Positions 21,273 through 29,314 of a DNA stretch of 64,000 bases are shown here, in pieces. Position 1 is the first letter of the stretch. Each line of letters begins with the position of its first letter. Where the stretch lies: sequence record PQ850618.1; one strand, written 5' to 3'. The stretch comes from Escherichia phage ManiWeber_Bas99. The notes beneath the pieces are model-generated. The model had not been told where the DNA came from. It ran no database searches and was given only the letters and a program-made list of their open reading frames with translations. The position numbers and the translations under genes were made by a program.

Positions 21273-21329
21273 AATATTGCTTATAGACTCCTTATAGATT
21301 ATAATTTGTTGATCAGATATAAGGAGTCT

Positions 21330-22058
21330 ATGATGGCAGAAAAGTTAACCCAACTTACAAGCCCCAACCAAACTGACAAATCAAGTATGTTTGCCGCGCT
21401 GCAGGGAATGCTGGACCGTGGCAAGTATACCACTGACGGCATGATTCCTGCACAAGTAATATCTTATGACCGCAAACAGAATTTAGCAGTCATAAAGCCT
21501 GTTATTCATTTCGTAAGTCTTGATGATAGACCAGTGGAGCGTCAACCACTGGTGTCAATTCCTGTATTGGCAATCGGCGGCGGCGGCTTCGTAATCAACT
21601 TTCCTCTGAAAGAGGGTGATTTGGGCTGGATATTCGCTGGCGACCGCGAGTTGTCGACATTCCTTGAAGAATTGAAGCCGACCGCGCCTACCAATGGCCG
21701 CGCGAAAACTTTCGCTGATGGACTGTTCATACCGGATGTATTTAGAAAATACACCATAAGCGGAGAGGATGCAGGCTCAATGGTAATCCAGTCACTCAGC
21801 GGCGCTGTCCGCATTGCATTAAGTGATGACTCGATAAACATAACTGCATCGGCTGGAGTAAATGTGAAAACACCAATAACCACTATCGACCAACAATTGA
21901 TAGTTAATGGAAAGGCAACGTTCAATGGTGGTATAGAAGGGAAAGAAGGAACGACGGCAACGCTTCCGACTGGCACAACAATCGGCGGCACAAATGTATC
22001 CACTCACGGTCACATAGGTAACGGACCTGGAAACAGAACTGGGGATATGATAGAATGA
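21330..22058 (+). CDS. baseplate hub/spike-like protein
   Basis: ATG at 21330 after AAGGAG; Gly-rich C-terminus; placed before the baseplate J-like gene. Confidence 0.4.
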   Translation: MMAEKLTQLTSPNQTDKSSMFAALQGMLDRGKYTTDGMIPAQVISYDRKQNLAVIKPVIHFVSLDDRPVERQPLVSIPVLAIGGGGFVINFPLKEGDLGWIFAGDRELSTFLEELKPTAPTNGRAKTFADGLFIPDVFRKYTISGEDAGSMVIQSLSGAVRIALSDDSINITASAGVNVKTPITTIDQQLIVNGKATFNGGIEGKEGTTATLPTGTTIGGTNVSTHGHIGNGPGNRTGDMIE

Positions 22059-23332: not shown

Positions 23333-26071
23333 ATGCAAAAGTTTGACACAAACCTGTTGCAAAACCTTAAGTGGATGCAGAACAATGCGCCAAACATCAC
23401 ATCTTTGGTGCAAAAGAAAAGTGACTGGTATGAAAGATACCAAGATCAGTTTTGGACTGACTGGTACAATAACATTTTTAACATTGACACTTGTGATGCA
23501 ATGGGCATTTATATTTGGTGCGACATTCTTTGCATACCAAGAGACTTTGTGGACTTAAGCAATTATGAGCACAACTGGGCGTTTGGACCGACGCGCGACA
23601 ACTTTGAAGGTGCGGACAACATCGGCGGCAACTTCTTTGGTGCTGGCGGGAAGGTTGTAAAGAATATCGAAGAAGCGCGCATACTTCTTAAGCTTCGTTA
23701 TCTGACGCTTACAAGTGATGGCCGCATCGAAAGTATCAACCGCATGCTTAAGTGGATTTTTAACCGTGGAGAGGCTTGGGATTACTCTTCATCACGCTAC
23801 GCATATGTGACCGACAATACTCAAGGTGCGGTGTCTTCATCTGAATCAACAAATGGCTCATTCCTTCTGTACGACTGGCAAGGGTCAACTGAGATTCAGC
23901 ATGATTATAAGCAGATACTTTTAAGCCATGGCAACAACGCCGGGCTGACCATCAGCGGAGTGTCAGGCACCGTGTCACGGATGGCGCACCCAGATTGGTA
24001 CTCATGGGGAAATGGTTCCGGCACAGGGATTGTCGGCGGCGACACCAGACAGTATGGTGGGCCTGATTACTATGGGCAGTTGTGTGGTGATTACCCAGGC
24101 GAGGCCATAGAGAATTTTGCCAACGCAGTAAGGGTCATCAAGACGGCTTCAAGCGGTGAGCCTGTGTATTCTTTGGCCAATAAACCAAGTGCCAAATCAA
24201 TTTCGCTTCCTTCGCAGGCTGGCGTCAACGTTTGCTATAGCTTCTACATAAAGGTGCTTTCTGAAAATGTCGCTTCTGTTTCTGTTACAGAGAATAGTGA
24301 TGCATCGAGTAATGGAAAGCTGTTTGACCCCGTCACTGGCCAGTTCAACTTGGACCCGTCATTGAGCTATTTCATCAAAGGTAAATTCGATGGAGTAAGA
24401 AGGGAATCAAACCGTGGTGGCATAAAAGCAATTGGCGGCGATTGGTATCGAATCTGGATTGTAGAGCAGACGGCAACCGCTGCTTCTGGAGTAAGTACCA
24501 GCTTTTCAATAGAGTTGAAGGCGACTGCCGCTGGATCAACTCAAACTCGTGAATTGCCTGAAGGGTCTGATGCTCTTTTGTTTGGATACTCGATTTGCGT
24601 CTGCGACCCTGTTCAGAATCCAAATGGACCTGAGCCTTATTTTTATGGAACGCAAAACCCTCCTTCTGACGGAACAGCAATCCTGTCTGTAACGGCGGGA
24701 ACGCTCAATAACATCTCCTGTGCAAACGGACCGCTGACGACAAGAAACGGTGTAGTTGGCGAGTCATTCATGCAACCTGGCTCATCACTTGCATACTCTG
24801 GCTCAATCGGCGGCTACCCGTACCCAGGGAACGCCACGCTGATTGCAGAGACTGATGGAATCAGACGCTCATGGAACGTTAGCAGGCTGGATGGAGTACC
24901 GCCGCCGCCGACCGCCGACTATTACATGGAATACGTCATCGGACCTTATTTCGCCAACAACCTGTCTGACAACTTTAAGACGCTAGTTGGCGACAGGAAT
25001 GAAGGATTCTTGCCAGCAAATGCCGGAATACGCTGGCAGCTTTACCAAGAAGTCGCAGACTTATCTGATATCGATTTGACTGTCAGCGACATAACAGACA
25101 CGCGCGTAGGATTTGAAACGGAAGGTGTTGCGTGGATTAACACTGACGGTATCATCAGAGTTGGCGGCATTAACGAGTGGCCACTGAACAACTTCAACGG
25201 TGTGATACGCCAGCTTGAATCTTTGAAAGGTGTAAACCAGGTCGTCGACGGCGCGCTTGTCAACGACTATTCAATCTCAAAAGCATCAAGAGATGACTTT
25301 GGTCGTGAAATACCACGCGCGGCAATCACTAACTATTGGCGCTACACACAGCCAAATGACGGTACATCTTTTGGCAATATCATTGAGGATGGCGCAAACA
25401 CTGTCACAGCGACGCCAATCAGCGGTGCGCCCAACCAGTTCCCATCATTCAAGCTTTCCGCTACAATAGGGACTGTGCCAGCATCCGGTTATGCACGCGC
25501 TGTACTTGCTACTAAATACACTGGCACCCTGACCGGCCCTTTGTCATTTATCGCGATAGTCAAAAACAACACGGTTAACGGTCAAAAACTTTTTGTAACT
25601 GTACCGGACGGGATGGGCGACTATATCCCTAAATTCTACAACATAGGCGCAGGTGATTTGCAACGTATCGAAATTGACCTTGCCGCTGAGATTGTTGAAG
25701 GCGCTACCTGGGATGGATCAACAGGTGGCATCAGCATCGGTTTGATATCAGGGAAAGACTTGCCGACCGAAGTTGGTACGACTCTTGAACTTGATATTTT
25801 AAGCTTGATGCTTGTGTCTGGTAATACGATGAATGCGCTTGCAATTTCAACAAGCGAAGATTTCGCAAAGAAAACTGCGACTTCTATATACATCAAAAAC
25901 CCAGGATCACTTGCCACTGGAGTTCAATTGATTGCTTCTAATGGTGATGTTGTAGCAACAGTAAACTTTCCGAGAAGTGCTGCTGGTGGTTATGTTTCAA
26001 GCATGAACATAACTGACTTAACTGGTGATTGGGCATCAACCCTTTTATCAAAAATTAAATACATCGTGTAG
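23333..26071 (+). CDS. large tail fiber / baseplate-associated protein
   Basis: 912 aa, Gly/Ser/Thr/Asn-rich, in the distal tail module. Confidence 0.5.
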   Translation: MQKFDTNLLQNLKWMQNNAPNITSLVQKKSDWYERYQDQFWTDWYNNIFNIDTCDAMGIYIWCDILCIPRDFVDLSNYEHNWAFGPTRDNFEGADNIGGNFFGAGGKVVKNIEEARILLKLRYLTLTSDGRIESINRMLKWIFNRGEAWDYSSSRYAYVTDNTQGAVSSSESTNGSFLLYDWQGSTEIQHDYKQILLSHGNNAGLTISGVSGTVSRMAHPDWYSWGNGSGTGIVGGDTRQYGGPDYYGQLCGDYPGEAIENFANAVRVIKTASSGEPVYSLANKPSAKSISLPSQAGVNVCYSFYIKVLSENVASVSVTENSDASSNGKLFDPVTGQFNLDPSLSYFIKGKFDGVRRESNRGGIKAIGGDWYRIWIVEQTATAASGVSTSFSIELKATAAGSTQTRELPEGSDALLFGYSICVCDPVQNPNGPEPYFYGTQNPPSDGTAILSVTAGTLNNISCANGPLTTRNGVVGESFMQPGSSLAYSGSIGGYPYPGNATLIAETDGIRRSWNVSRLDGVPPPPTADYYMEYVIGPYFANNLSDNFKTLVGDRNEGFLPANAGIRWQLYQEVADLSDIDLTVSDITDTRVGFETEGVAWINTDGIIRVGGINEWPLNNFNGVIRQLESLKGVNQVVDGALVNDYSISKASRDDFGREIPRAAITNYWRYTQPNDGTSFGNIIEDGANTVTATPISGAPNQFPSFKLSATIGTVPASGYARAVLATKYTGTLTGPLSFIAIVKNNTVNGQKLFVTVPDGMGDYIPKFYNIGAGDLQRIEIDLAAEIVEGATWDGSTGGISIGLISGKDLPTEVGTTLELDILSLMLVSGNTMNALAISTSEDFAKKTATSIYIKNPGSLATGVQLIASNGDVVATVNFPRSAAGGYVSSMNITDLTGDWASTLLSKIKYIV

Positions 26072-26081
26072 AGGAACGGCA

Positions 26082-27866
26082 ATGCCAACACTTATTAACA
26101 GACCTTTCGCGCAAAGCGGTGATGTATCCGTGGTGCCGGATGCAAGTCCAAGCGGTTATGTGAACTTCCAGCGCGGCTACACCCCTGACTATGCACTTGC
26201 CCTGGAAGCCGGAAACGTCGCCGCGAAAGCGGTTGAACGTGAGTCGATGAACTGGTTGCTGAATCTGATCACCGACAACCTTATGTTCATCCAGGACCAC
26301 GGCGCTCAACAGTATTTCTCGTCTGACTTGAAGCCAGATGGATACCCGAAAAATGCCATCGTTGTCAGCAACTCTGGCACCCCTTCAGCGCCTGAATGGC
26401 GCATTTTCCAGAGTGTGGTAGACGGCAACACCAGCGCAGTCCCAGCTAACGGCGAAACGGAATCTTGGCAGGAATTGACGCTGCCTAGCGAAGCGAGAAA
26501 ATATATTCCTATGCCTGCTGGCGGCGATGCGCAAAACCCGTATTTTGTTCGCGGACTGATTTCAAACTTTGTGGACTTTGATAATATCACGACTTCCACA
26601 ACTATTGTCATCCAATCTGACGCCGTTGCCGCTCTCTGCTCTAACATCCCGAACGCGGTTGGTGCGACGAAGGTTGCAGGTCGTCTCCAGGTTTGCGCTT
26701 GGCAGGTTGATGCGCAAACTTTTGCCCTGCAGCAATACACATCAATGAACGGATATGTTTTCACCCGCTCTTATACTTCTGGTGCTTGGAGTGCCTGGAT
26801 TCAAAATGCTACTGTTCAAGACGTGCAAATTGGAACGCCGAATCTTGCATCAGGTAAAGGCGCACAAGATATAATCCTTACCGTTCCAGCAGGTTATTCA
26901 TGGCCTCCGTCAGCAGGTAGTCGCCTGACAATCGTCAATGATGTGACGACTACCGGACCTGTCACCGTGACCATTGGTGTAAACAAAGTTGCCGTTCTTG
27001 GATTCGACGGCAGCGAGTTGCCAGCTGGCGCTATCGTAGGCCTGTTGCCATTCACCATCATCTATGACGGCACTGTTTGGCGTCTTCTTCAGGCATTCGG
27101 CGCGGCGCAAATCGGCGTTGATGCTACGGAGCCGCAGCAGTTTGTTACCAAAAGGCAACTTGACGCGCTTGCCGCGAAGTTGATTACCATGGGCGACGTA
27201 TTCGAAGTTGGTGAGACTCGATTCCTTACCAACGGGACCAACCCAAATACTAAACTGGGCGCTTACGGTCAGGTATGGACAAGGTTGCCTGATAACATGG
27301 TGATTCGCACGTCTGGAACGGCGCGAAACGGTCTTGATACAGGCGGTGCAGACTCTGTTACTCTTACCGCCGCAATGCTTCCACTCCACAATCACAGTGT
27401 GAACATTACCACGCGACAAAGTGGTCCATGGTCCAATACCACTGGAGACGCAGGCAACCATAGCCACACAGGCGATACAAGCCAAAACGGTGCTCACTCT
27501 CACGGTATGGATGCAGCTGGTAACCACCATCACGACAGCGGATGGGGCGAGGCGTATGCCGACCAAGCTCGATACGGAGTTTATGATGGAACAAACAACA
27601 ACATTGGAAGCAGAAAGACGGATTATGATAACTACAAGTTCAACACTTCAACTAACGGCAACCATGTCCACAATATTCAATCTTCTGGTTCACACACCCA
27701 TGGCTTGAATATTCAATTTTCCGGCAATCACAGCCACGGCTATACACTTCCCGCTCACACTCACGATGTGGTCGGTAACACTGGCGATGCAGGGCAGTCG
27801 GTGCCAACGGCTGTTTCAACTCTGCCGCGATACGTTGTTTTGAATGGCTGGTACAGAAGCGCATAA
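26082..27866 (+). CDS. tail fiber protein with C-terminal His-x-His repeats
   Basis: ATG at 26082 with GAGGAA SD; C-terminal NHSH, AHSHG, NHHHD, NHVHN, SHTHG, NHSHG, AHTHD repeats resemble metal-binding HxH motifs of fiber tips. Confidence 0.55.
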   Translation: MPTLINRPFAQSGDVSVVPDASPSGYVNFQRGYTPDYALALEAGNVAAKAVERESMNWLLNLITDNLMFIQDHGAQQYFSSDLKPDGYPKNAIVVSNSGTPSAPEWRIFQSVVDGNTSAVPANGETESWQELTLPSEARKYIPMPAGGDAQNPYFVRGLISNFVDFDNITTSTTIVIQSDAVAALCSNIPNAVGATKVAGRLQVCAWQVDAQTFALQQYTSMNGYVFTRSYTSGAWSAWIQNATVQDVQIGTPNLASGKGAQDIILTVPAGYSWPPSAGSRLTIVNDVTTTGPVTVTIGVNKVAVLGFDGSELPAGAIVGLLPFTIIYDGTVWRLLQAFGAAQIGVDATEPQQFVTKRQLDALAAKLITMGDVFEVGETRFLTNGTNPNTKLGAYGQVWTRLPDNMVIRTSGTARNGLDTGGADSVTLTAAMLPLHNHSVNITTRQSGPWSNTTGDAGNHSHTGDTSQNGAHSHGMDAAGNHHHDSGWGEAYADQARYGVYDGTNNNIGSRKTDYDNYKFNTSTNGNHVHNIQSSGSHTHGLNIQFSGNHSHGYTLPAHTHDVVGNTGDAGQSVPTAVSTLPRYVVLNGWYRSA

Positions 27867-28551: not shown

Positions 28552-28775
28552 ACGGCTTCAACCTGGACGGGTGGCGCGGAACTTGTATCAATGTCTGGCA
28601 AGTCGAAGTAATACCCCGCCATGCCAATCACGCCAACAATCGCGGCCCGTGCCACCTTGTTGCTAATTGACTCCCCAATAAGCTTTACCAACAGGGACAA
28701 GATTTGAGACGTCAAAGCCTTTTTCAGCCTTTTGTTTTCTTCCAAATCTTTCTGCATAACTACCACCCATGTCAA
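28545..28775 (-). CDS. small membrane protein (holin-like candidate)
   Basis: 76 aa with one hydrophobic segment AAIVGVIGMAGYYF; close to the endolysin but on the opposite strand. Confidence 0.35.
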   Translation of the reverse strand: MTWVVVMQKDLEENKRLKKALTSQILSLLVKLIGESISNKVARAAIVGVIGMAGYYFDLPDIDTSSAPPVQVEAVK

Positions 28776-29314
28776 CGCACATCCTGTGTCTTAACATTAC
28801 CTGAAGCATCTCTTAAGGGCAGTGGATAGTAGGCCATTTGGTAGTCTGATACGCCTTCAACATGATAAAACACGATTACGTCTTTGCTGTTGATGAGCAT
28901 GTTAACGACATCTGATTTATCTTCTGGAGTGAGTATGAGTGCGCCGCCTGTCCTGCTGTCTACTGCAACAGGGTATGTCTTGTCGACAAGGCCGCTGTCC
29001 AATGTATTATACCTGACAACGATTTCAGCGGCATCAACTTTTGCAATTGACATTCCGAACACAAACGAAACGACTTGGCGACCGCGATCATTCATTACGC
29101 ACATCTTTTCCTTATCAAACCTTTCCTTTATCACATCATATTTGTTCCAGCAAAATTCGAACGATTGGCCGTTGTTAAAATATCTCGTTAACACTTTGGC
29201 ATTACTATTTGGTGGCGTAAACATACTTTCAGCCGCTGCACTTTTGGTGAAGAACAAGACTGTCAGCATAGCCATGATGGTGATCAAAACAATCTTTAAA
29301 GTTTTCGATTTCAT
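28772..29314 (-). CDS. secreted protein of unknown function
   Basis: 180 aa with N-terminal signal peptide MKSKTLKIVLITIMAMLTVLFFTKSAAA. Confidence 0.5.
   Translation of the reverse strand: MKSKTLKIVLITIMAMLTVLFFTKSAAAESMFTPPNSNAKVLTRYFNNGQSFEFCWNKYDVIKERFDKEKMCVMNDRGRQVVSFVFGMSIAKVDAAEIVVRYNTLDSGLVDKTYPVAVDSRTGGALILTPEDKSDVVNMLINSKDVIVFYHVEGVSDYQMAYYPLPLRDASGNVKTQDVR

Follow-up and report, generated by a model that had tools for sequence, protein, structure and literature searches.

A conserved baseplate-attached tail fibre of Wifcevirus, probably with a Pa193-type anchor and a gp37-type HxH metal tip

Phage tail fibres of the gp37 type end in a tip made of a collar, an Fe-binding needle of HxH motifs and a receptor-contacting head (PMC12609058). 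T4 gp37 itself has seven HxH motifs and seven Fe ions (PMC12609058), and the tips of Felixounavirus fibres, described by cryo-EM and modelling, carry 6-7 HxH motifs (PMC12609058). HxH motifs brought together from three chains form an octahedral His6 Fe(II) site, for which a role in the folding register and in stiffness was proposed; axial HxH triads with a metal are found in the solved structures of gp37, the R1 and R2 pyocin fibres, the P2 gpV and phi92 spikes, and gp12 (PMC6116203). For the proximal end of the fibre, the closest described system is Pseudomonas phage Pa193, in which the homologous part of the tail fibre gp47 is a trimeric "beads-on-a-string" attached to the wedge protein gp46, whose loop 80-113 binds the fibre (PMC11456595).

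In the genus Wifcevirus, Humolli et al. 2025 (PLoS Biol, PMC11990801) presented an AlphaFold-Multimer model of Bas99 Gp32, with a gp37-like HxH tip conserved in the genus. They assigned O-antigen recognition to a second, T-shaped fibre, and every isolate that they tested requires the O16 O-antigen, a requirement that does not by itself tell which fibre binds O16 (PMC11990801). The tip type is well known, and the novelty of the fibre tip studied here is low because these authors have already described it for the genus. We analyzed a window of 64,000 nucleotides (i.e., the whole stretch of DNA considered here) of a Wifcevirus genome, the genus being one of myophages of E. coli and Shigella. We are fairly confident that the gene at 26082..27866 encodes the conserved, baseplate-attached fibre of this genus, with a Pa193-type anchor and a gp37-type HxH metal tip.

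The fibre gene and its N-terminal anchor

The tail fibre gene is complete (26082..27866, on the plus strand like its parts and the wedge gene described below), and its ORF and translation give 594 aa plus a stop codon. The ATG at 26082 is preceded by the ribosome-binding site GAGGA at 26071-26075 and by an upstream stop at 26069-26071, and the protein matches PHROG 5717 "tail protein" (E 1e-175). In Wifcevirus, the fibre locus lies between the gene of a DUF2612 wedge protein and that of a GH19 endolysin; the same order, i.e., wedge, fibre and endolysin, was found in Bas100 by synteny comparison. The overlapping minus-strand ORFs, for instance, 26910..27566 (218 aa), were rejected as genes because the plus-strand frame is conserved and under strong purifying selection (dN/dS 0.043). 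Next to the fibre gene, no member of a fibre chaperone or assembly-protein family was found, the downstream genes being those of the GH19 endolysin and of small unknown proteins. Most Wifcevirus records label the fibre gene "hypothetical protein" or "tail protein"; with its domain boundaries defined, it can now be named a tail fibre of the gp37 type that probably binds iron.

On the 5' side, the gene at 23333..26071 encodes a baseplate wedge protein of 912 aa, which carries a match to Pfam DUF2612 and whose residues 4-185 match Pa193 gp46, "baseplate wedge 2", with an E value of 1.9e-41. By analogy with Pa193, the fibre probably docks on this wedge protein. The first 372 residues of the fibre (26082..27197) are assigned to a baseplate anchor and proximal shaft by their homology to Pa193 gp47 (PDB 9b45, phmmer, E 7.6e-32, aa 2-372 aligned to 4-368), and they would form a trimeric anchor and shaft docked on the upstream wedge protein, in the manner of gp47 on gp46. 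Beyond residue 368 of gp47, phmmer gave no significant alignment, and no homology of the distal part was found. Pbunavirus and Serratia/Erwinia phages likewise have only the N-terminal fibre part in common with the window protein, the Pbunavirus matches being limited to query residues 2-269. As judged by sequence homology, the fibre is thus of the Pbunavirus type in its N-terminal anchor and shaft, and the gene upstream of it encodes a wedge protein that is homologous too.

The C-terminal tip and its HxH motifs

Several comparisons support the assignment of the C-terminal ~220 aa to the T4 gp37-type tip family (collar-needle-head). The family profile matched the T4 gp37 tip (PDB 2XGF) with an E value of 2.3e-15, the HMMER bias term being high, and hhalign related the tip to gp37 with a probability of 99.0% (E 7e-18), this link resting on profiles of His/Gly/Ser/Thr-rich repeats of biased composition. 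The other matches of the profile are almost only phage fibre or baseplate proteins, and the single non-phage match is not significant (E 0.79). A pairwise BLASTP between the tip and T4 gp37 gave E 9e-5 at ~29% identity and put the four descending HxH motifs one-to-one in register with the four of gp37, whereas the ascending ones map onto gp37 differently by BLASTP and by hhalign. The motif context G-x-H-x-H-[TS] is common to both tips. With the C-terminal part as single sequence, phmmer found no match in PDB, and Pfam gave no meaningful match to the window protein (for the whole protein only DUF6059 at E 0.1, for the C-terminal part none at E<=10). Among the 55 C-terminal homologues that we collected, most carry Pfam Gp10_C (PF21939), whose cut-off was exceeded by four of the six that were rescanned, and Collar (PF07484) is also seen. 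The family profile matched the C-terminal domain of T4 gp10 (2fkk) with E 0.007, through the blocks YPxG, TGGxxSVTL..LPA and the C-terminal YI.V..W.R.A.

All 55 homologues have their HxH motifs in two blocks (3 to 13 motifs) that flank a His-free insert. In an alignment of 32 sequences (A1), three HxH motifs are invariant throughout and a fourth is nearly so. The lengths of the ascending and descending needle blocks are 49 and 34 aa in the window protein, vs. 49 and 35 aa in T4 gp37, and they are correlated over 60 family members (r 0.90) as well as over the 17 distinct combinations (r 0.94). Such matched lengths, which are expected if the chain runs out and doubles back, are indirect evidence of such a course. 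An AlphaFold2 monomer of aa 365-594, calculated from the 32-sequence alignment, was unusable (mean pLDDT 53.7, pTM 0.26); a low monomer pLDDT is expected because the tip would be an obligate intertwined trimer. Taken with the N-terminal homology, these comparisons bear out, for both halves of 26082..27866, the name "tail fibre" given to it in the preliminary description.

We propose that aa 373-594 form a gp37-type tip, the collar of which would be split by a long insertion running along the trimer axis. The first half of the collar (aa 373-435, 27198..27386) is a conserved block, YPVG...PN...TGGADSVTLT..LPxHxH in A1, and ends with TGGADSVTLTAAMLP right before the first HxH. From the alignment with gp37, the chain would then go out through an ascending needle segment with four HxH motifs (aa 436-486, 27387..27539; motifs at aa 436, 460, 472 and 482), form at the predicted distal end a His-free head of 40 aa, placed between the HxH blocks as in gp37 (aa 487-526, 27540..27659), and come back through a descending segment with four others (aa 527-563, 27660..27770; motifs at aa 528, 538, 550 and 559). 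The collar would finally be closed by aa 564-594 (27771..27863), a C-terminal return that reads ...GNTGDAGQS...LPRYVVLNGWYRSA, carries the motif GNxGsG...Y.KLMGWYRSA conserved in A1, and aligns with the C-terminus of T4 gp10 (QPYITVYRWIRIA).

At least seven HxH motifs had been noticed in the fibre C-terminus between 27430 and 27790. We recovered all seven, i.e., GNHSHT (aa 460-462, 27459-27467), GAHSHG (aa 472-474, 27495-27503), GNHHHD (aa 482-484, 27525-27533), GNHVHN (aa 528-530, 27663-27671), GSHTHG (aa 538-540, 27693-27701), GNHSHG (aa 550-552, 27729-27737) and PAHTHD (aa 559-561, 27756-27764), and added an eighth, PLHNHS (aa 436-438, 27387-27395), 35 nt upstream of 27430. Together, these motifs hold 17 of the 18 histidines of the fibre. 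Shuffling the whole protein gave a mean of 0.52 HxH and never reached eight (0/20,000); shuffling only the His-rich last 154 aa gave a mean of 1.35, the observed seven being reached in 3/20,000. Furthermore, all eight motifs are kept in 21 of 22 Wifcevirus orthologues, in which the nearby residues vary, the sole exception being an UNVERIFIED record, whose protein has 90.7% identity to that of the window. Because of these shuffle counts and of this conservation, the HxH motifs are real, non-random and under selection, and an origin by chance or low complexity is rejected.

Conservation of the fibre, variation of its head and host range

The orthologues were taken individually from sequence records, since an IMG/VR scan for relatives gave just four loci, three of which are isolates already in GenBank. 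The fibre turned out to be nearly invariant. Indeed, 28 Wifcevirus records are 89-94% identical in nucleotides to the window gene, 27 of them encode a protein with 95-99% aa identity to that of the window (90.7% for the UNVERIFIED one), and pairwise aa identity among 21 aligned orthologues is 94.5-100%. These phages were isolated on hosts as different as O157:H7, K-12 with the O16 O-antigen, ESBL E. coli and Shigella flexneri.

The variation that does exist is concentrated in the head. Variable columns make up 15/41 (37%) of the head vs. 46/554 (8%) elsewhere (Fisher p 2e-6), and dN is 0.10 in the head vs. 0.009 in the N-terminal part. Three types of head allele, each with minor variants, occur in Wifcevirus, plus a one-codon indel, and the window fibre has the WFH/CWP003-type allele. 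The fibre genes of WFC and Bas100 differ at 74 nt, 44 of which fall within a 151-nt block; divergence is 29% in the block vs. 1.8% outside it (Fisher p 7e-31), and from codon 517 onward the two genes do not differ. This recombination block (alignment codons 466-516, 27477..27626 in the window) takes in the third and fourth ascending HxH motifs as well as the greater part of the head. Such head mosaicism is the one addition to the published picture of the genus and of the T4 and Felixounavirus tips.

The His-rich segment had been proposed to mark the receptor-binding region. This holds insofar as it marks the far end of the fibre, where the receptor is probably bound; the HxH residues would lie inside, on the trimer axis, as structural metal sites. 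By analogy with gp37, receptor contact is likely made by the His-free head (aa 487-526), between the two HxH blocks, rather than by the histidines. That variation and recombination in the fibre gene gather in the head lends this predicted role indirect support.

The same segment had been suggested as a host-range determinant, and this was largely not borne out, in agreement with the conclusion of Humolli et al. (PMC11990801). We consider it unlikely that the His-rich tip is the main determinant deciding which E. coli and Shigella strains are infected. A gp37-type tip does set specificity in T-even phages (PMC12609058), and variability within the gene is here highest in the head (37% vs. 8% of columns), which has also been exchanged by recombination between otherwise identical genes; against such a role, the fibre is 94.5-100% identical pairwise among the 21 orthologues from these hosts, with a dN/dS of 0.043 overall and below 0.1 even in the head. 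When the segment was compared among phages of different hosts, the head types did not track the recorded hosts: O157:H7 phages have two types (ECML-117 on the one hand, FEC19/Eco4M-7 on the other), and the Shigella flexneri phages CWP003 and ECO71P1 differ from each other in head type. Moreover, the second, T-shaped fibre of the genus, to which Humolli et al. give O-antigen recognition (PMC11990801), is far more variable (55-100% identity, with domain swaps) and has receptor-binding domains in common with T5-like and Gordonclarkvirinae phages. In Bas100, its gene lies at 64448-66781, past the end of the window, and was therefore invisible to the preliminary description.

Thus, rather than being the main host-range determinant, the conserved fibre most likely has a conserved surface structure as its target or takes part in a shared, later stage of adsorption or triggering, because it is nearly invariant across Wifcevirus, and it would be the T-shaped fibre, outside the window, that most likely selects the O-antigen type. 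The conserved fibre may still have a limited role in specificity, because variation and recombination in its gene are concentrated in the head. More tentatively, and with rather low confidence, the head of 40-50 codons may be a recombination cassette, swaps of which would tune the fibre to a second conserved receptor (e.g., an LPS core variant) and add to the host range; the conserved HxH repeats that flank it could serve as homology arms. If so, the "invariant" fibre would not be purely mechanical, and host range would depend on head swaps together with the T-shaped fibre. For phage engineering, the main host-range handle would be the T-shaped fibre and not the window fibre, within which only the 40-aa head would be worth swapping.

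Metal binding and comparison with known systems

The HxH repeats had also been proposed to coordinate metal ions. The homology to the gp37 tip (2XGF profile, hhalign and G-x-H-x-H context) supports this proposal, and what we infer beyond it is the trimer geometry, the bound metal itself with its occupancy, and the receptor. By analogy, the fibre tip is probably iron-binding. At each HxH motif, the three chains together would supply six imidazoles as ligands of a single metal ion on the axis, by analogy Fe(II). A fibre tip would thus hold up to eight ions, and a virion ~48 of them should it bear six fibres like Pa193. The role of these ions would be structural: they would keep the three chains in register as these fold, and they would stiffen the six-stranded needle.

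It is quite improbable, in our view, that the HxH motifs are a mere signature of a beta-structured fibre repeat devoid of metal, or that they hold Zn, Ni or another metal without structural importance. All the cited solved proteins with axial HxH triads contain a metal ion (PMC6116203), among them T4 gp12, the crystals of which had Zn at the HxH site (PMC6116203), a point in favor of another metal. The Pfam model of the repeat bears the plain name "Phage tail fibre repeat" (PF03335, a weak match in homologues). In some relatives, FDYGTK units stand in place of ascending HxH units, and Klebsiella homologues have lost the first HxH; single sites are therefore dispensable. The set as a whole argues the other way, with eight motifs invariant in 21 orthologues among variable neighbouring residues, and with three invariant and a fourth nearly so in the 32 sequences of A1. 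Very improbable indeed is a "Ferrojan horse", in which the fibre iron would mimic siderophore-iron for docking on a TonB-dependent receptor, or would be delivered or sequestered: this hypothesis exists for fibres with HxH motifs (Bonnain et al. 2016, cited in PMC11705849) and up to ~48 ions could be carried per virion, but the gp37-type fold keeps its ions inside, on the axis, and unexposed (PMC12609058, PMC6116203), the tested Wifcevirus isolates all depend on the O16 O-antigen as receptor (PMC11990801), and no link of the fibre to iron uptake is present in the window.

The conserved Wifcevirus fibre (Bas99 Gp32; Bas98_0031, Bas100_0031 and Bas101_0031; WFH, WFC, FEC19 and others) occupies the same locus as in the window and has 95-99% aa identity and the same eight HxH motifs, with no essential difference. 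Its locus and its counterparts in Bas98, Bas100 and Bas101 point to orthology between the window fibre and Bas99 Gp32, Bas99 itself not being among the records searched. Pa193 and E217 (Pbunavirus) gp47 resemble the window fibre in the N-terminal 370 aa, the wedge partner, the gene order and the baseplate type. Unlike the window fibre, Pa193 gp47 has 962 aa and another distal part, and the Pbunavirus matches lack the HxH tip.

At the C-terminus, the closest likeness is to the T4 gp37 tip (residues 785-1026, PDB 2XGF), the structure of which is reportedly that of Bartual et al. 2010; both have the succession of collar, needle, head and return, with G-x-H-x-H in two blocks. They differ in the number of HxH motifs (eight, 4+4, in the window vs. 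seven, 3+4, in gp37) and in the head, which is unrelated in sequence and slightly longer in the window. Furthermore, the window tip is carried by a short, Pbunavirus-type fibre of 594 aa straight on the baseplate, whereas the T4 tip is carried by a long fibre of four proteins. T4 gp37 requires gp38 and gp57A, and in the window, unlike in T4, no gp38-like chaperone gene is adjacent. The long and short fibres of Felixounavirus (Bas63 gp27 and gp26; Felix O1 family) also have a collar, an HxH needle and a head at their C-terminus, with 28-34% identity over 98% of the tip length by tblastn, but other N-terminal anchors and shafts, another motif number and another head. Finally, the R-type pyocin fibres and the P2 gpV and phi92 spikes have, as predicted for the window fibre, a three-chain HxH His6 Fe site on the trimer axis; theirs is one site in a different fold, whereas the window fibre would carry an array of eight.

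Histidine motifs of the fibre and homology of its tip

The ORF 26082..27866 (+), whose ATG is preceded by a GAGGA ribosome-binding site and by the upstream gene's stop codon, encodes by translation a 594-aa tail fibre. We found all seven His-x-His (HxH) motifs quoted in the preliminary description, at aa 460-561, and an eighth one, PLHNHS (aa 436-438, nt 27387-27395), slightly upstream of the start proposed for the segment. The eight motifs account for 17 of the 18 histidines. Whole-protein shuffles gave a mean of 0.52 HxH and at least eight in 0/20,000 cases; when only the His-rich last 154 residues were shuffled, the observed seven were reached in 3/20,000. Motif positions and shuffling thus confirm the observation.

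Single-sequence searches of the His-rich C-terminal part in Pfam and PDB gave no match. Residues 365-594 match 55 proteins, mainly from Enterobacterales and in most cases labelled as tail fibre or baseplate proteins; the majority carry Pfam Gp10_C or Collar. HxH motifs are present in 55/55 (3 to 13 per protein), in two blocks either side of a His-free stretch of 30-50 residues. In an alignment of 32 members of this family, a conserved block ending TGGADSVTLT..LPxHxH is followed by a variable number of repeats, an insert, and the C-terminus GNxGSG...Y.KLMGWYRSA. The alignment profile matches the receptor-binding tip of T4 gp37 (PDB 2XGF, E 2.3e-15) and, at the collar blocks, the C-terminal domain of T4 gp10 (E 0.007); further matches are almost all phage fibre or baseplate proteins, the one non-phage match (E 0.79) not being significant. 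Moreover, hhalign of the tip family against the gp37 tip gave 99.0% probability, and pairwise BLASTP of the window tip gave E 9e-5, with the four descending HxH in register; the ascending HxH were mapped onto gp37 differently by the two programs. Homology to the gp37 tip is well supported by these sequence comparisons, but given the biased composition it is uncertain which residues correspond. When 1.84 billion cluster representatives were scanned in full with a single-sequence query, 345 matched at E <= 0.001. The tip module was matched in 338 phage records, among them those of the Felixounavirus fibres, for which cryo-EM work has described gp37-like tips (PMC12609058).

Needle architecture and putative metal sites

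In gp37-type tips, the chain runs out along a needle, forms a head and then returns, so that the needle is six-stranded (PMC12609058). If the family shares this fold, the ascending and descending blocks must match in length. Indeed, their lengths correlate (r 0.90 over 60 proteins; 0.94 over 17 distinct length combinations), with 49 and 34 residues in the window protein and 49 and 35 in T4 gp37, and both tips have the context G-x-H-x-H-[TS] in common. Axial HxH from three chains form an octahedral His6 site holding a metal ion (PMC6116203). Such sites occur in T4 gp37 (seven Fe), in R1/R2 pyocin fibres, in the P2 gpV and phi92 spikes (PMC6116203; PMC12609058) and, with Zn as the bound metal, in T4 gp12 (PMC6116203); the metal is proposed to provide reference points for the three chains while folding and to tune stiffness (PMC6116203; PMC12609058).

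By homology, the fibre tip would contain up to eight His6 metal sites, of presumed metal identity and occupancy; a virion with six fibres, like that of phage Pa193, would then carry about 48 ions. The 40-aa head (aa 487-526) would form the exposed distal end of the tip, with the histidines buried. The structure prediction of the tip monomer was unusable (pLDDT 53.7). The earlier reading of the segment as metal-coordinating finds support in the homology to gp37-type tips; as a receptor-binding region, it may hold for the head and probably not for the histidines themselves, which are expected to be buried.

The baseplate spike protein (21306..22058, +), with three His in total, carries a single C-terminal HxH, STHGHIG (aa 234-236, nt 22005-22013), reminiscent of the P2 gpV, phi92 and Bas63 central spikes with their iron-loaded tips. 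Judged by the annotation of the Wifcevirus phage Bas100, this gene probably starts at an internal ATG instead of the listed TTG.

Attachment to the baseplate and gene neighbourhood

Fibre residues 2-372 align to residues 4-368 of gp47, the Pa193 tail fibre (PDB 9b45, E 7.6e-32), and the first 185 residues encoded by the upstream ORF (23333..26071, +) match Pa193 gp46 (E 1.9e-41). The aligned part of gp47 is a trimeric "beads-on-a-string" that attaches through its N-terminal loops to a loop of the gp46 wedge protein (PMC11456595). Since both partners have counterparts here, the fibre would be attached directly to the baseplate. The wedge protein has 912 aa, of which only the first ~185 match gp46 (504 aa) and DUF2612, and its homologues in Pantoea phages Kyle and PA1 have ~590 and ~560 aa; no domain was recognised in the remaining ~700 aa, which might serve to dock the second, T-shaped fibre of Wifcevirus or act as an additional binding module.

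Pbunavirus, Serratia and Erwinia relatives have only the N-terminal part of the fibre in common, whereas Pantoea Kylevirus phages and Vibrio phage JSF39 have full-length homologues with nine HxH each. In JSF39, the next gene is annotated 'tail fiber assembly protein' (locus L025, 1716-2318). In Wifcevirus and Kylevirus, the fibre gene is followed by the endolysin gene, and a search of its neighbourhood gave no chaperone family. The Bas100 fibre gene lies at the same locus, between baseplate wedge genes and a GH19 endolysin. A 180-aa ORF (28772..29314, minus strand) with a signal-like hydrophobic N-terminus (MKSKTLKIVLITIMAMLTVLFFTKSAAA) matched no PHROG family; Bas100 keeps its counterpart as a hypothetical protein.

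Conservation, head variation and host range

The fibre gene shows 89-94% DNA identity to 28 Wifcevirus records (E. coli and Shigella myophages, 66-72 kb), and 95-99% protein identity except for one low-quality record; the matches are annotated 'tail protein' or 'hypothetical protein'. We aligned 21 good orthologues, from phages that had been isolated on O157:H7, on K-12 carrying O16 antigen, on ESBL E. coli and on Shigella flexneri. Any two of these proteins are 94.5-100% identical, dN/dS is 0.043, and all eight HxH are invariant. The sole orthologue without one HxH (aa 482) is in PQ604604.1 (ECP_WGS_SA1, UNVERIFIED), whose fibre is 90.7% identical to the window protein and whose record length and gene coordinates are those of phage WFH; this deviation likely reflects sequence errors and not a real variant.

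The residual variation is concentrated in the head, with 15/41 variable columns versus 46/554 elsewhere (Fisher p 2e-6) and a dN of 0.10 versus 0.009 in the N-terminal part. The head shows a one-codon indel and three types, with minor variants within each. Between the fibre genes of phages WFC and Bas100, 44 of the 74 nucleotide differences fall within one 151-nt block (codons 466-516; 29% divergence versus 1.8% elsewhere, p 7e-31), and there are none from codon 517 to the end. From these alignments, the block looks like an exchange of the head cassette, which is compatible with a receptor-contacting role of the head. A contribution to host range keeps this concentration of variation in its favour, but head types do not track the recorded hosts and selection in the head is still purifying (dN/dS 0.09).

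The fibre shaft (codons 1-375) is also mosaic. Compared with WFC and Bas100, the window sequence has 99-100% nucleotide identity over codons 1-195 and only 80-87% over codons 300-375; against phage CWP003 the pattern is reversed, codons 300-360 being 100% identical and the N-terminal part 84-93%.

The second fibre gene lies just past the window end (Bas100 64448-66781, minus strand; locus L002, 8449-10782). With Bas100 as reference, the first fibre is 95-100% identical in other phages, whereas the second is 55-98% identical in other Wifcevirus records, often over part of its length only. Its distal domains are common to T5-like and Gordonclarkvirinae phages, the distal two thirds showing 55-66% identity to T5-like (fp01, SP15, IrisVonRoten) and Gordonclarkvirinae fibres, which indicates, at the sequence level, that its receptor-binding domains have been exchanged horizontally. 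Humolli et al. 2025 described the conserved Wifcevirus fibre in exactly these terms, suggesting 'a more mechanical role', and proposed that the variable T-shaped fibre probably recognises O-antigen (PMC11990801). Since one fibre is near-invariant and the other variable, in their account as in ours, the claim that the His-rich segment determines host range is not supported as stated, and such a role of this tip segment would be at most secondary. The tip is a known module, correctly spotted, and published work already describes orthologues of its gene in such terms.
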